A program made the translations under genes and the position numbers. A stretch of DNA of 64,000 nt, taken from the NCBI RefSeq assembly GCF_003334355.1, contig NZ_QOWP01000019.1. The stretch is one strand, 5' to 3'. Under the pieces are notes generated by a model. The model worked only from the letters and a program-made list of their open reading frames with translations. It made no database searches and was not told the DNA's origin. Each line of letters starts with the position of its first letter. Position 1 is the stretch's first letter. Origin of the DNA: Escherichia coli (GTDB lineage: Bacteria; Pseudomonadota; Gammaproteobacteria; Enterobacterales; Enterobacteriaceae). Of this stretch, positions 7,203 to 62,655 are shown piece by piece.

Positions 7203-8351
7203 TTACCAGGCGGTATGGTAAAGCTCTACAATATCCTCAAGCGTTGCTTCACGCGGGTTGCCACCGGTACAAACATCATCCAGTGCCGCCTGCGCCAGTG
7301 CCGGAATGTCTTCCTTGCGTACACCAACATCACGCAAATGTGGCGGAATACCGACATCACGGTTGAGAGCAAACACCGCTTCAACAGCGGCATTACGCGC
7401 CTCTTCCAGGCTCATACCTTCCACTTTCACGCCCATAACGCGCGCGATATCGCGGTACTTCTCACCGGTAAAGTCAGCGTTATAACGCATGACATGCGGT
7501 AACAGGATGGCGTTCGCAACACCGTGTGGAGTGTTATAAAACGCGCCCAGTGGATGCGCCATACCATGCACCAACCCTAACCCAACATTCGAGAAGCCCA
7601 TACCCGCAACATACTGCCCGAGCGCCATTTCTTCTCCGGCATCCTTATCACCAGCAACCGATCCTCGCAGCGCCCCAGCAATGATTTCAATCGCTTTAAT
7701 GTGCAGTGCATCGGTTAGCGCCCACGCGCCACGGGTAATATACCCCTCAATAGCATGAGTGAGCGCATCGACACCCGTCGCAGCTTTCAGCGCTGGAGGC
7801 ATACCATCCATCATGTCAGCGTCAATAAACGCCACCTGCGGGATATCATGCGGATCAACGCAAACAAACTTGCGCCGTTTCTCTTCGTCAGTGATCACGT
7901 AGTTAATGGTCACTTCTGCCGCAGTACCTGCTGTGGTAGGAATTGCCAGAATCGGTACACTGGGTTTATTGGTCGGGGAAAGCCCTTCCAGGCTACGCAC
8001 ATCGGCAAACTCCGGGTTGTTGCTGATAATGCCAATCGCTTTACAAGTATCCTGTGGAGAACCACCACCAATAGCGATCAGGTAATCCGCGCCGCTATTC
8101 TGGAATACACCGAGCCCTTCTTTGACGACAGTAATTGTTGGGTTGGGCACTACGCCGTCGTAAATCGCCCATGCCAGCCCTGCAGCATCCATCTTATCGG
8201 TCACTTTCGCCACCACGCCGCATTGCACCAGCGTTTTATCGGTGACGATCAGCGCCTTCTGATAACCACGGCGTTTCACCTCATCGGTTAAAGCCCCAAC
8301 AGCACCCCGACCAAACCATGCCGTTTCGTTCAGAATCATTCTGTTAGCCAT
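7203..8351 (-). CDS. fucO: L-1,2-propanediol oxidoreductase (lactaldehyde reductase)
   Basis: Iron-type alcohol dehydrogenase ORF recognised as FucO; two adjacent in-frame ATGs, so the start is 8351 or 8354. Confidence 0.93.
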   Translation of the reverse strand: MANRMILNETAWFGRGAVGALTDEVKRRGYQKALIVTDKTLVQCGVVAKVTDKMDAAGLAWAIYDGVVPNPTITVVKEGLGVFQNSGADYLIAIGGGSPQDTCKAIGIISNNPEFADVRSLEGLSPTNKPSVPILAIPTTAGTAAEVTINYVITDEEKRRKFVCVDPHDIPQVAFIDADMMDGMPPALKAATGVDALTHAIEGYITRGAWALTDALHIKAIEIIAGALRGSVAGDKDAGEEMALGQYVAGMGFSNVGLGLVHGMAHPLGAFYNTPHGVANAILLPHVMRYNADFTGEKYRDIARVMGVKVEGMSLEEARNAAVEAVFALNRDVGIPPHLRDVGVRKEDIPALAQAALDDVCTGGNPREATLEDIVELYHTAW

Positions 8352-8378
8352 CATCCTTCTCCTTGTTGCTTTACGAAA

Positions 8379-9026
8379 TTACTCTTCAATCCGTAACCCA
8401 TAGGTTTTGAATTTCTCCAGCACTACGGCAATCTCTTCATCGCTCAGCACTGGCACCGGGTCCGTAATCGCCAGGGTCGTCAGGTAAAGTTGCGCCAGCA
8501 CTTCAACTTCATGCGCCAGCCATAACGCTTTTTCCAGATTCACCTCACAAGCGATAAGCCCATGATGTTGTAACAAAGTTGCCTTACGATTTTTGAGAGC
8601 CAGCGCAACATGTTCAGAAAGTTCGCGTGTTCCAAAGGTCGCATAAGGCGCGCAAGGAATAGAATTACCACCTGCCGCCGCAATCATGTAGTGAATAGCG
8701 GGGATCGGTCGGTTAAGAATGGAAACTGCTGTGCAATGAACGGCATGATTGTGAACAACCGCGTTGGCATCCGGTCTGCTTTGATAGGCCGCCATATGGA
8801 AACGCCATTCGCTTGAGGGGAGCTTTCCTTCCTCATGTTTACCGTTGCCATCAATAAAGACAATATGCGACTCCGTCAGTTTTTCATATGGAATGCCTGT
8901 AGGCGTAATCAGCATCCCATCCTGATAACGTACACTGACGTTCCCCGCTGTCCCCTGGTTCAGTCCCAGGCGGGTCATTTCCAGGCAAGTGTCAATAATC
9001 TGACGAGCAAGTTTATTTCGTTCCAT
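8379..9026 (-). CDS. fucA: L-fuculose-1-phosphate aldolase
   Basis: 215-aa class II aldolase ORF recognised as FucA. Confidence 0.95.
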   Translation of the reverse strand: MERNKLARQIIDTCLEMTRLGLNQGTAGNVSVRYQDGMLITPTGIPYEKLTESHIVFIDGNGKHEEGKLPSSEWRFHMAAYQSRPDANAVVHNHAVHCTAVSILNRPIPAIHYMIAAAGGNSIPCAPYATFGTRELSEHVALALKNRKATLLQHHGLIACEVNLEKALWLAHEVEVLAQLYLTTLAITDPVPVLSDEEIAVVLEKFKTYGLRIEE

Positions 9027-9572
9027 TAGCTACCTCTCTCTGATTCAAAACAGGGCAATAATGTTGTTCCTTTCACACTATTGAATTAGCCGTTTAATTA
9101 CCCACCATCTTCTTCCTGATTAACCAGAAAGAAATTCACAAGCTTATATTTTGTGACATGGTTCAACTAATCACAGTAAATAACTGCAAGTTCTCTTTTT
9201 ATAACCCCATTAAAAATGACCGCTCTTAAAAATATTTATCAAAACGGTCATTTTTCTATTCACCCAAGCCAGGAATGCCCGTTTTCGGCATAAACAATTA
9301 ATACGGTCATCTGGTTTGTGTTTTTTATGATTTATTTTCTGAAACGGGCATGAAATTTCGATTATTAAAGTGATGGTAGTCACATAAAGTCACCTTCCAG
9401 CTAATAAGTGTGACCGCCGTCATATTACAGAGCGTTTTTTATTTGAAAATGAATCCATGAGTTCATTTCAGACAGGCAAATATTCACTGATATGAAGCCC
9501 GAACTCGCTGGTTTTGCACTTTTGAAAACATAACCGATTACGTGCTTAAGCTTCTGAACCTAAGAGGATGCT
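9027..9572. promoter_or_regulatory. Divergent fucAO / fucPIK control region
   Basis: 546-bp AT-rich spacer between divergent operons; contains an 11-bp perfect inverted repeat (9213-9223 / 9245-9255) and a CRP-like site agtgatggtagtcaca at 9369-9384. Confidence 0.6.
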
Positions 9573-44240: not shown

Positions 44241-44720
44241 TGGATAGCCGTTTTTATTCACCTTTTCTGTGGATAGAGTTGTGAAGAACTACGGAATTAC
44301 TACGGGAAAACCCGGAGCATTCTGAATAAGCCCGATATAGACATTTTAAAATATTCATTATTAGTCAATGCATTACATGTAATTTGAGTAATGAAAAAGA
44401 GTAATTCGTGACCCAGGTCACACCTCTCATTTACGGGTTGGCGAAAGATCAACCAATGCCGTATTTATCCACAGAATGTGCCACTAAGTTAAGCACTGAA
44501 CCACTAAAAACTGGAGTTTCGTCGCACGTCAAGGCTGTAAATGGAAACAGTAGTGGAGGTTTTTCACAGTTATCCCAGCTTTCTGTGGATAACATGGTGT
44601 AAGATCCTGTTTATTTTCAGTGACCAGATTTGGAAAACCCGTTGCAGTGTTGCGCAACTCGATTACCGGCAACCTAAAAAGCAATATAAATCAGAGAATT
44701 GAACAACGCATGTGGAAAAA
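44241..44720. promoter_or_regulatory. DnaA-box cluster consistent with DARS2 (DnaA-reactivating sequence 2)
   Basis: Perfect TTATCCACA boxes at 44465-44473 (+) and 44584-44592 (-), 8/9 matches at 44268-44276 and 44711-44719; DARS2 is known to lie in the rppH(ygdP)-mutH intergenic region. Confidence 0.6.
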
Positions 44721-59378: not shown

Positions 59379-59531
59379 AGTTAAGGATTAAAAAAAGTGC
59401 AGTGTCGATCACGAATATGTCATGAGAATGGAAAAATGAGGGAGCCCAGAAAATGTATGTCGACTTGCCAGCCATCATTATTCAACAGATTAATGACGGC
59501 AGATATTTATCGGTAAGGAGGAAATGCAGAG

Positions 59532-60713
59532 CTATTCGTCACGTTCAATGGTCAATGCCACACCCTGGCCCCCGCCGATACAAAGCGTTGCCAGTCCTTT
59601 GCGGGCATTACGTTTCACCATTTCATGAACCAGAGAAACCAGGATTCGGCAACCGGAAGCGCCTATCGGGTGACCAAGTGCGATCGCACCACCATTGACA
59701 TTGACCCGACGCTCATCCCACTCAAGCATCTTGCCAACCGAAAGCGCCTGTGCAGCAAACGCTTCATTAGCCTCGATAAGATCGACATCAGCCAACTGCC
59801 AGCCTACACGCTCCAGGCAACGGCGGGTCGCATACACCGGCGCAATTCCCATCAATGCCGGATCTACACCAACGCTGGCAAATGCGCGAATGCGGGCCAG
59901 CACGGGTAAATTCAACGCTCGTGCTTTGGCTTCGCTCATCATCATTACCGCAGCTGCGCCATCGTTTATGGATGATGCATTACCCGCTGTCACAGAACCG
60001 AGACTATCAAATGAAGGATTTAAACGGGCTAAACCTTCTGCACTGGCGTCAGTGCGTGGCTGTTCATCGGTATCAACAACCAACGTCTGACCGTTACTTT
60101 GGGTCATTACCGGGACGATCTCATCTTTAAATCGTCCGGCGTCAATCGCCGCTCGCGCTTTTTGTTGCGAGCTAAGTGCGTAAGCATCCTGCAATTGACG
60201 GCTGATGCCATATTCGCGAGCCAGATTTTCGGCGGTGACACCAATATGATAATCATTGAAGGCATCCCATAACCCATCATGCACAAGACTGTCAACCAGC
60301 TGGCTATTGCCAAGCTGTGCACCGGTGCGGCTATCAGTCAGAACATGTGGTGCGCGGCTCATGTTTTCCTGGCCACCGGCGATGACAATATCAGCCTCGC
60401 CACACTGTATCGCCTGAGTAGCCAGATGCAGTGCTTTAAGTCCGGAACCGCAGACGTCATTAATCGTGATTGCAGAAACGCTATTAGGCAGACCACCTTT
60501 AATAGCCGATTGCCTTGCCGGATTCTGCCCTGCCCCTGCAGTCAACACCTGACCAAGAATTACTTCATCCACCGCATATGCAGGAACGCCGGTACGTTCT
60601 ATTAACGCTTTCACGACCAGACTACCAAGTTCCACGGCGGAATGACCCGCTAACGCACCGCGAAAGCAGCCGATAGGTGTCCGTAACGCCCCGACAATCA
60701 CAACGTCTTTCAT
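59532..60713 (-). CDS. yqeF: Acetyl-CoA C-acetyltransferase (thiolase II family) YqeF
   Basis: 393-aa thiolase ORF from the ATG at 60713; an in-frame GTG lies one codon upstream. Confidence 0.92.
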   Translation of the reverse strand: MKDVVIVGALRTPIGCFRGALAGHSAVELGSLVVKALIERTGVPAYAVDEVILGQVLTAGAGQNPARQSAIKGGLPNSVSAITINDVCGSGLKALHLATQAIQCGEADIVIAGGQENMSRAPHVLTDSRTGAQLGNSQLVDSLVHDGLWDAFNDYHIGVTAENLAREYGISRQLQDAYALSSQQKARAAIDAGRFKDEIVPVMTQSNGQTLVVDTDEQPRTDASAEGLARLNPSFDSLGSVTAGNASSINDGAAAVMMMSEAKARALNLPVLARIRAFASVGVDPALMGIAPVYATRRCLERVGWQLADVDLIEANEAFAAQALSVGKMLEWDERRVNVNGGAIALGHPIGASGCRILVSLVHEMVKRNARKGLATLCIGGGQGVALTIERDE

Positions 60714-60785
60714 CACAACCTCGCACCAATTAACAGTGCAATAGTAAATGATTGTTAATTACAGTTATCTTAATTGTTTAAAAAA

Positions 60786-60801
60786 AGTGATTTTTATCAC
60801 A
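60786..60801. promoter_or_regulatory. CRP-like site aGTGA-N6-TCACA upstream of yqeF
   Basis: agtgatttttatcaca, centred about 80 bp upstream of the yqeF start codon. Confidence 0.4.
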
Positions 60802-60966
60802 AAGGAAATATGCCTGAGCAGTAGTCAGAGTCATAACTGGCACGTAAGGTTTGCAACCACTAACCCACCAATAGAGGGGTAGATAGGCGTTAATCTCCCA
60901 TACTTAACCTGGTTTATGGTAAATTGCCCTCCATTTTGTTTAATTTGTAGATGATACGTTCAGATA

Positions 60967-62196
60967 ATGTCTAATATTTGGTCTAAAGAAGAAACTCTGT
61001 GGAGTTTCGCGCTCTACGGCACAGCCGTTGGTGCAGGCACGCTCTTCCTTCCTATTCAGTTAGGTTCGGCAGGGGCTGTGGTCCTGTTTATTACTGCTCT
61101 GGTCGCCTGGCCTTTAACATATTGGCCACATAAAGCCTTATGCCAGTTCATCCTCTCATCGAAAACATCAGCAGGTGAAGGGATAACGGGCGCAGTAACA
61201 CACTACTATGGCAAGAAGATTGGTAATCTGATTACCACGCTGTACTTCATCGCCTTTTTTGTCGTCGTGTTGATATATGCAGTGGCAATTACCAACTCAC
61301 TTACGGAACAGCTGGCAAAGCATATGGTTATTGATCTTCGCATCCGTATGTTGGTGAGTCTGGGTGTTGTATTAATCCTGAATCTCATTTTTCTGATGGG
61401 ACGCCATGCAACCATTCGGGTAATGGGTTTTTTGGTATTCCCATTGATTGCCTATTTCTTATTTCTTTCCATTTACCTTGTCGGTAGTTGGCAACCTGAT
61501 CTATTAACGACCCAGGTAGAGTTCAATCAGAATACCCTTCACCAGATATGGATATCGATTCCCGTGATGGTTTTCGCCTTTAGCCATACGCCCATTATTT
61601 CTACGTTTGCCATAGACAGACGTGAAAAATATGGCGAACACGCTATGGATAAATGCAAAAAAATTATGAAAGTCGCTTATCTCATCATCTGCATAAGTGT
61701 ACTGTTCTTTGTCTTTAGCTGCCTGCTTTCTATTCCACCTTCGTATATTGAAGCGGCTAAAGAAGAAGGGGTCACCATTTTATCGGCGCTTTCTATGCTG
61801 CCGAACGCCCCAGCATGGCTGTCAATTTCCGGGATTATTGTCGCAGTAGTTGCGATGTCGAAATCATTCCTGGGTACGTACTTTGGCGTTATTGAAGGTG
61901 CCACGGAGGTCGTCAAAACAACACTACAGCAGGTTGGTGTAAAGAAAAGTCGTGCATTTAACCGCGCACTATCAATTATGTTGGTATCGCTGATCACCTT
62001 CATTGTTTGTTGCATTAACCCGAACGCGATTTCGATGATTTACGCGATCAGCGGCCCGCTCATTGCCATGATACTTTTCATCATGCCTACGTTGTCAACG
62101 TATCTGATCCCGGCGCTTAAACCCTGGCGTTCCATCGGAAATCTGATTACGCTGATCGTGGGTATCCTGTGCGTATCGGTAATGTTCTTTAGCTGA
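60967..62196 (+). CDS. yqeG: HAAAP-family transporter YqeG (paralog of SdaC)
   Basis: 409-aa polytopic ORF sharing conserved blocks with SdaC (IPVMVFAFSHTPIISTFA, LFFVFSC). Confidence 0.9.
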   Translation: MSNIWSKEETLWSFALYGTAVGAGTLFLPIQLGSAGAVVLFITALVAWPLTYWPHKALCQFILSSKTSAGEGITGAVTHYYGKKIGNLITTLYFIAFFVVVLIYAVAITNSLTEQLAKHMVIDLRIRMLVSLGVVLILNLIFLMGRHATIRVMGFLVFPLIAYFLFLSIYLVGSWQPDLLTTQVEFNQNTLHQIWISIPVMVFAFSHTPIISTFAIDRREKYGEHAMDKCKKIMKVAYLIICISVLFFVFSCLLSIPPSYIEAAKEEGVTILSALSMLPNAPAWLSISGIIVAVVAMSKSFLGTYFGVIEGATEVVKTTLQQVGVKKSRAFNRALSIMLVSLITFIVCCINPNAISMIYAISGPLIAMILFIMPTLSTYLIPALKPWRSIGNLITLIVGILCVSVMFFS

Positions 62197-62250: not shown

Positions 62251-62655
62251 TAATGTTCATTCGTTATTATTCCGCACTATCACTTCCCTCATCATATCCT
62301 AGTATTATCAGTTAGTTAAACACACAAAGAGATCTGAACATCTTATATAAGACTATTTAAGATGCATAACTTAGATTCGCAAGATATCTTCTGGTCATTC
62401 AAAAACAATTTGCGATATAGATATTCTCATACCATGAGATAGTTATCTGAACCACCCTCAACCAGGTAAGATTAAATCAGTGAAACATAATCATATTTAA
62501 TAACGAGAAATGCATTTTAAAATGTCTTAATCAGAATTATAGCAAATACAGATTAATCGCAATTTTTCCCAGCAAAATTACAAAATCATGGTGTATTGAC
62601 ATCATCAATCACCAATGAAATTATGCAATTATATACGGATAGGGAGGTTCTTAAC

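Follow-up and report, generated by a model that had tools for sequence, protein, structure and literature searches.

The DNA analysed here is a stretch of 64,000 nucleotides from Escherichia coli, hereafter the window, in which the thiolase gene yqeF and the permease gene yqeG are divergent neighbours separated by a 253-bp spacer. This spacer contains, at positions 60786-60801 of the + strand, the 16-mer AGTGATTTTTATCACA. The region is chromosomal: the 700 bp surrounding the 16-mer matched 5418 of 5426 complete E. coli genomes, in which the annotated genes are yqeF (acetyl-CoA C-acetyltransferase) and yqeG (amino acid permease). With respect to protein family, YqeF scored 652 bits against the NCBIfam model PRK05656 (acetyl-CoA C-acetyltransferase), below its cut-off of 688, and 470.6 bits against TIGR01930, above the cut-off. 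Just past yqeG, in the yqeH-yqeI-yqeJ region at the edge of the ETT2 island (about 62600-64000; 7503-8787 in locus L002), yqeI and yqeJ are members of the ArcA-1 iModulon (Sastry et al. 2019). The genes and the box are the following:

59532..60713, - strand: yqeF coding sequence, ATG at 60713, 393 aa, thiolase / acetyl-CoA C-acetyltransferase (RefSeq annotation)
60783..60804: 22-bp span, aaaAGTGATTTTTATCACAaag, that a CRP dimer would be expected to contact, judging from the sequence
60786..60801: 16-bp cAMP-CRP box, AGTGA-TTTTTA-TCACA on the + strand and TGTGA-TAAAAA-TCACT in the yqeF sense, dyad centre at 60793.5
60967..62196, + strand: yqeG, serine/threonine-transporter family permease, the divergent neighbour in Escherichia and a possible secondary target only

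The first-pass annotation of this DNA had proposed that a CRP-like site, fitting 9 of the 10 core positions of TGTGA-N6-TCACA and lying about 80 bp upstream of the yqeF start codon, places yqeF under catabolite control. Both the fit and the distance were confirmed. The sole mismatch in the core is an A in place of the first T, the spacer is exactly 6 bp long, and the dyad centre lies 80.5 bp 5' of the yqeF ATG and 173.5 bp 5' of the yqeG ATG. The palindrome also continues inward, as GTGAT-N4-ATCAC, and the 22-bp span agrees with the CRP consensus AAATGTGATCTAGATCACATTT at 15 of 22 positions.

On its own, a match to TGTGA-N6-TCACA with at most one mismatch is weak evidence for a CRP box. Six such matches occur in the 64-kb window for 1.95 expected, and 3 of 100 shuffles reached the same number. 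This excess is explained by the fact that four of the six matches (at 391, 9369, 44407 and 60786) are also CRP sites in Table S3 of Shimada et al. (2011). More informative was the matrix scan that had been suggested as a check on the site, run with a CRP matrix derived from 150 SELEX boxes of that table, among which the yqeF site is not included. The yqeF box scored 16.4 of a maximum of 19.9 bits, the highest value in the window, and would rank 12 of 150 among the training boxes, whose median score is 11.0 bits. The other three matches found in the table (391-406, 9369-9384 and 44407-44422) correspond to syd/queF, to the known fucAO/fucPIKUR site and to ptsP/ygdT, respectively, and the coordinates of the listed sites, when compared, imply that this DNA and K-12 differ by an indel of about 220 bp somewhere between 9.4 kb and 44 kb of the window. 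We also noticed TGCGATCGTTATCACA at 14579-14594, fourth in the window with 14.4 bits and absent from the table of Shimada et al., which lies close to where a 140-aa ORF (14226-14648) ends and about 110 bp before the start of the following one (14697).

Physical binding of cAMP-CRP to this 16-mer has been documented in vitro. In the genomic SELEX-chip experiments performed with cAMP-CRP by Shimada et al. (2011, PLoS One 6:e20081), Table S3 lists the identical 16-mer at 2.98369 Mb (U00096.2). In K-12 MG1655 we located it at 2985665-2985680 of NC_000913.3 and, by our own calculation, the two positions agree after a genome-version offset of about 1976 bp. In that table, the SELEX-chip peak is located "on yqeF", with kduI and ">yqeG" as its flanking genes; yqeF is not named as the target, nor is it mentioned in the main text. 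The "DB" column is blank for this row, which indicates that the site came from SELEX-chip and stood outside RegulonDB at that time. Thus, the CRP site upstream of yqeF is already catalogued and constitutes no discovery: the box listed by Shimada et al. between yqeF and yqeG and the one described here are the same object, which was reported there without assignment to the yqeF promoter. New here are the attribution of the site to yqeF, its footprint across species, the finding that it keeps a constant distance from a conserved -10, and explicit promoter coordinates.

Published expression data point indirectly to a CRP-dependent expression of yqeF. In the analysis of Sastry et al. (2019), yqeF belongs to the "Crp-1" iModulon, together with acs, actP, cstA, aldA, aldB, fadH and tnaA, and belongs neither to the FadR iModulon nor to the ArcA iModulons. 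Such membership is a statistical, hence indirect, link to CRP. Moreover, in a reconstructed mutant of the DNA-binding domain of CRP (V140W), yqeF was reported to decrease 6.7-fold in RNA-seq and 52-fold in qPCR, accompanied by fad genes including fadB, by tdcB and by flagellar genes. Since V140W alters 48% of all genes, its effect on yqeF is weak evidence. Expression of yqeF also rose at the transition from exponential to stationary phase in O157:H7 Sakai grown in glucose minimal medium, and the gene was induced along with fad and prp genes in a ptsA mutant growing on dihydroxyacetone. Our literature search for yqeF in combination with CRP, cAMP or ArcA retrieved no dedicated regulatory study, no reporter assay in a crp-null strain and no in-vivo ChIP evidence at the site, and a search for "b2844" returned unrelated papers only.

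We then scanned one genome per species for the upstream regions of 16 enterobacterial yqeF orthologues sharing 75-96% amino acid identity, a set including Escherichia, Citrobacter, Enterobacter, Kluyvera, Phytobacter, Pluralibacter, Superficieibacter, Shimwellia and Mangrovibacter. All 16 have a CRP box that scores 11.1-16.4 bits and whose centre lies 80.5-87.5 bp from the yqeF ATG, and in every 500-bp upstream region it was the sole match of at least 9 bits. Over the 92 kb of orthologue loci, 16 of the 27 matches of at least 11 bits are the yqeF box. No comparable match to the CRP matrix was detected in the 300 bp upstream of 58 non-enterobacterial (Pseudomonas-type) or paralogous loci. Together with the SELEX listing, the Crp-1 membership and the drop in V140W, the presence of the box in 16/16 orthologues supports the catabolite control of yqeF proposed at the outset. 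As a separate observation, four non-Escherichia loci (L010, L012, L013 and L014) carry additional matches of 11-14.5 bits just past the yqeF stop codon (about 1350-1540 bp from the ATG), where they presumably precede the following gene, kduI in the case of L010.

By aligning 17 sequences, we found that conservation concentrates on the half-sites rather than on the spacer or the flanks. The left and right half-sites reach 1.87 and 1.68 bits per column, respectively, for 0.84 bits in the N6 spacer and 0.46-0.50 bits in the upstream flank of the box. GTGA and TCA are invariant and the N6 spacer is variable; the other invariant columns are a few A/T positions, a T-A-n-n-A-T element and the start of the coding sequence. 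A similar picture emerged within the species. In E. coli AVS0787 and Esc18 the box reads AGTGA-CCATTA-TCACA, with three substitutions that all fall in N6 (60791-60796) and leave the half-sites intact, which, as far as the sequence can tell, would be a within-species case of selection on the half-sites only. Also, among the E. coli strains sampled, the 110 bp nearest to yqeF are invariant, and polymorphism is seen in the half of the spacer that adjoins yqeG. In E. coli NT1N28, an IS903B element is inserted about 31 bp past the CRP box on the yqeG side (around 60832), cutting yqeG off from the spacer and leaving the CRP box and the yqeF promoter intact.

The gene order around these orthologues bears on which gene the site serves. 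Only 5 of the 16 orthologous loci have yqeG adjoining yqeF, and the position of the box is kept in the other 11. In Citrobacter, Enterobacter and Kluyvera, a divergent pair made of a PACE-family efflux gene and an AceR-like LysR gene lies between yqeG and yqeF (L005, L006, L008 and L009; about 950-2400), the LysR gene being co-directional with yqeF and ending about 100 bp before it. In the remaining loci, the upstream gene is either co-directional (MetQ-like or MFS) or divergent (ClC or PPOX-like). The box stays fixed relative to yqeF while the upstream neighbour changes, and therefore belongs to yqeF.

Between the box and the yqeF start codon, the alignment delineates the following elements (bits per column refer to the 17 sequences):

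60771..60785, - strand: T/A-rich block, TTTTTTTAAACAATT in the sense orientation, directly downstream of the CRP box, 1.23 bits per column
60751..60757, - strand: block TAACAAT, in the predicted -35/-10 spacer, with TGTTAA at 60753-60758 on the + strand, 1.65 bits per column
60741..60746, - strand: putative -10 hexamer TACTAT, conserved, 1.84 bits per column
60734, - strand: predicted transcription start (G), 7 nt after the -10 and placed from the conserved hexamer
60718..60721, - strand: Shine-Dalgarno GAGG of yqeF, partly conserved in the alignment

In TACTAT, T1, A2, A5 and T6 are invariant in the 17 sequences and variation is restricted to positions 3-4 (TAAGAT, TACCAT), a pattern characteristic of -10 hexamers. 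The distance from the CRP dyad to the first base of TAnnAT is 47.5 bp in 16 of the 17 sequences and 48.5 bp in the remaining one, and the distance from the hexamer to the ATG varies from 33 to 40 bp. CRP activation is known to have a helical-phase requirement, which predicts a fixed spacing between activator and promoter such as the one seen here. The hexamer located 17 bp 5' of TACTAT is GATAAC, which is not -35-like, and a consensus scan of 60600-61100 found no sigma-70-like promoter, both of which are consistent with an activator-dependent promoter. A start at 60734 would put the dyad at about -59.5, and a start 1-2 nt further downstream would shift it to -60.5 to -61.5. The TTTTTTTAAACAATT block is a candidate docking site (UP-like) for the alpha C-terminal domain (alpha-CTD) of RNA polymerase. 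The TAACAAT block, kept in 16 of the 17 sequences, may be the site of a second regulator.

Other assignments of the yqeF promoter were considered and rejected. Taking AACAAT (60756-60751) as the -10 would set CRP on the wrong face of the helix, at about -49.5, and this hexamer is missing in Mangrovibacter. Pairing TTAACA (60758-60753) as a -35 with GTTAAT (60734-60729) as a -10 would give a neat -71.5; most species, however, are without the conserved A at position 2 of GTTAAT, and the transcript would begin inside the Shine-Dalgarno sequence. TGTAAT (60763-60758) as the -10 of a Class II promoter is not conserved. Likewise, the sigma-70 ChIP-exo "TSS" that S1 Table of Latif et al. (2018) gives for the yqeF transcription unit, at 2982432(-) (U00096.2), lies at the 3' end of the gene (about position 59529 of the window, at the stop-codon end of yqeF) and is probably a mis-assigned kduI promoter. 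The published data that we searched, including the Cappable-seq supplements of Ettwiller et al. (2016), contain no mapped yqeF TSS, and Shimada et al. (2014) reported a constitutive RpoD promoter together with H-NS in the kduI-yqeF spacer. By inspection of the yqeF/yqeG spacer, we found no resemblance to sigma-54, KdgR, FadR, PdhR, IHF or NarL sites that stood up.

Taken together, we consider it likely, with a probability of about 0.8, that the element is a genuine cAMP-CRP operator of the yqeF promoter, and that it most likely works by Class I-type activation. According to this model, glucose exhaustion would raise cAMP and a CRP dimer would occupy the near-perfect palindrome GTGAT-N4-ATCAC, from which it would recruit RNA polymerase to a weak promoter made of the conserved -10 TACTAT (60746-60741) with no recognisable -35. 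At Class I promoters the dyad is found near -61.5, -71.5, -82.5 or -92.5 relative to the TSS. With a dyad lying 47.5 bp upstream of the -10 and at about -60 from the predicted start, a Class I arrangement as at lac P1 would be the most likely one, in which activating region 1 of CRP would touch the alpha-CTD docked on the T/A-rich block just 3' of the box. The identity of the -10, the position of the start, the Class I mechanism and the docking of the alpha-CTD are inferred from the sequence. The model leaves the conserved TAACAAT block unaccounted for.

Like lac P1, the proposed promoter has a poor -35 preceded by a single CRP dimer, a box about five helical turns from the -10, and A/T-rich DNA between CRP and the core promoter that could accommodate the alpha-CTD. 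It also differs from lac P1. The lac P1 dyad lies at -61.5, with 49.5 bp from box to hexamer by our own count, whereas the yqeF box-to-hexamer distance is 47.5 bp, which puts the predicted -59.5 position 2 bp closer than the lac optimum. Moreover, the yqeF box is far nearer to the consensus in both half-sites than the lac box. As to the regulatory context, the thiolase YqeF co-varies with fad genes in two transcriptome studies, which sets it beside the CRP-activated genes of fatty-acid and short-chain acyl-CoA catabolism (fadBA, fadE, fadH, fadD, acs and atoB), and acs, actP and fadH are fellow members of the Crp-1 iModulon. The yqeF gene falls outside the FadR iModulon, and inspection of the spacer revealed no FadR-like operator.

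Several other explanations were weighed against this one. The box might be a fortuitous or non-regulatory CRP-binding sequence with no transcriptional consequence, given that chance alone would yield about 2 matches with no more than one mismatch in 64 kb and that genomic SELEX shows in-vitro binding only. Yet its position and half-sites are kept in 16 species while N6 and the flanks drift, its spacing to a conserved -10 is constant, and yqeF both belongs to the Crp-1 iModulon and is lower in the V140W mutant, so that we regard a chance site as very improbable. It is even harder to see the palindrome as an operator for FNR or another protein of the CRP/FNR family instead of CRP. GTGAT-N4-ATCAC does match 8 of the 10 positions of the FNR consensus TTGAT-N4-ATCAA, and cross-recognition between CRP and FNR is documented to some extent. 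Both mismatches, however, fall on the positions that discriminate CRP (G/C) from FNR (T/A), and the site carries G and C there, invariant in the 17 sequences, rather than T and A. This 16-mer was, in addition, selected by cAMP-CRP in SELEX, and yqeF is a Crp-1 member. A different question is whether the permease gene yqeG, divergent from yqeF in Escherichia, is the target there, alone or alongside yqeF, since the site lies within the divergent spacer, Shimada et al. (2011) give ">yqeG" as the right-hand gene of the peak, and bidirectional use of one CRP site is well known at other loci. We find this unlikely. In the 11 loci without an adjacent yqeG, the position of the box relative to yqeF is unchanged, and several of them have a co-directional upstream gene ending about 100 bp before yqeF, which leaves no divergent promoter there. 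Within E. coli, the dyad is 173.5 bp away from the yqeG ATG, yqeG is not among the listed members of the Crp-1 iModulon (Sastry et al. 2019), and the half of the spacer next to yqeG varies between strains and is interrupted by IS903B in one of them, in contrast to the invariant yqeF-proximal 110 bp. In any case, use by yqeG cannot be the reason why the site is conserved.

A second regulator may also be involved, occupying the conserved blocks that separate the box from the -10 and either assisting or opposing CRP. One candidate would be ArcA-P, in which case yqeF would behave as a fad-like gene, activated by CRP and repressed anaerobically. Read on the + strand, TAACAAT and TTTTTAAACA become TGTTAA (60753-60758) and TGTTTA (60775-60780), direct repeats 22 bp apart, with a weaker AGTTAT (60763-60768) between them. 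The two blocks are kept in 15-16 of the 16 orthologues and would lie in the predicted -46 to -19 region. TGTTAA resembles the repeat sequence of ArcA sites, a likeness that we judged by eye. ArcA sites consist of direct repeats 11 bp apart centre to centre, often more than two of them, and ArcA represses fad genes (Park et al. 2013). The 22-bp spacing recalls this architecture, and yqeF moves together with fad genes in the two transcriptome studies. The middle repeat, however, is 1 bp out of register, the TGTTTA block can be read equally well as an alpha-CTD/UP-like site, yqeF is not in the ArcA iModulons (Sastry et al. 2019), and our literature search found no paper linking yqeF to ArcA binding, so that we hold a second regulator, with ArcA as a candidate, to be a tentative and rather doubtful idea. 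Equally speculative is a broader arrangement in which the yqeF control region would form a conserved composite module, with CRP at an unusual fixed -59.5 and a second regulator, possibly ArcA-P, on TGTTAA/TGTTTA overlapping the core promoter, and in which the same dimer might also drive yqeG in Escherichia.

We return to our preferred reading, a CRP-dependent yqeF promoter. Knowledge of CRP itself is unchanged by the yqeF site, and what is gained in practice is modest: the SELEX peak of Shimada et al. (2011) can be attributed to yqeF and not to kduI or yqeG, and the promoter receives precise coordinates. YqeF is among the remaining poorly characterised enzymes of E. coli and has found use as a thiolase in pathways engineered for reversed beta-oxidation. 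Should its native promoter indeed be conserved, dependent on CRP and devoid of a -35, this would explain why yqeF is largely silent on glucose, and would suggest a catabolic, carbon-scavenging role for YqeF rather than a biosynthetic one. The composite module, should it exist, would place YqeF in an aerobic, catabolite-derepressed programme of acyl-CoA catabolism across the Enterobacteriaceae.
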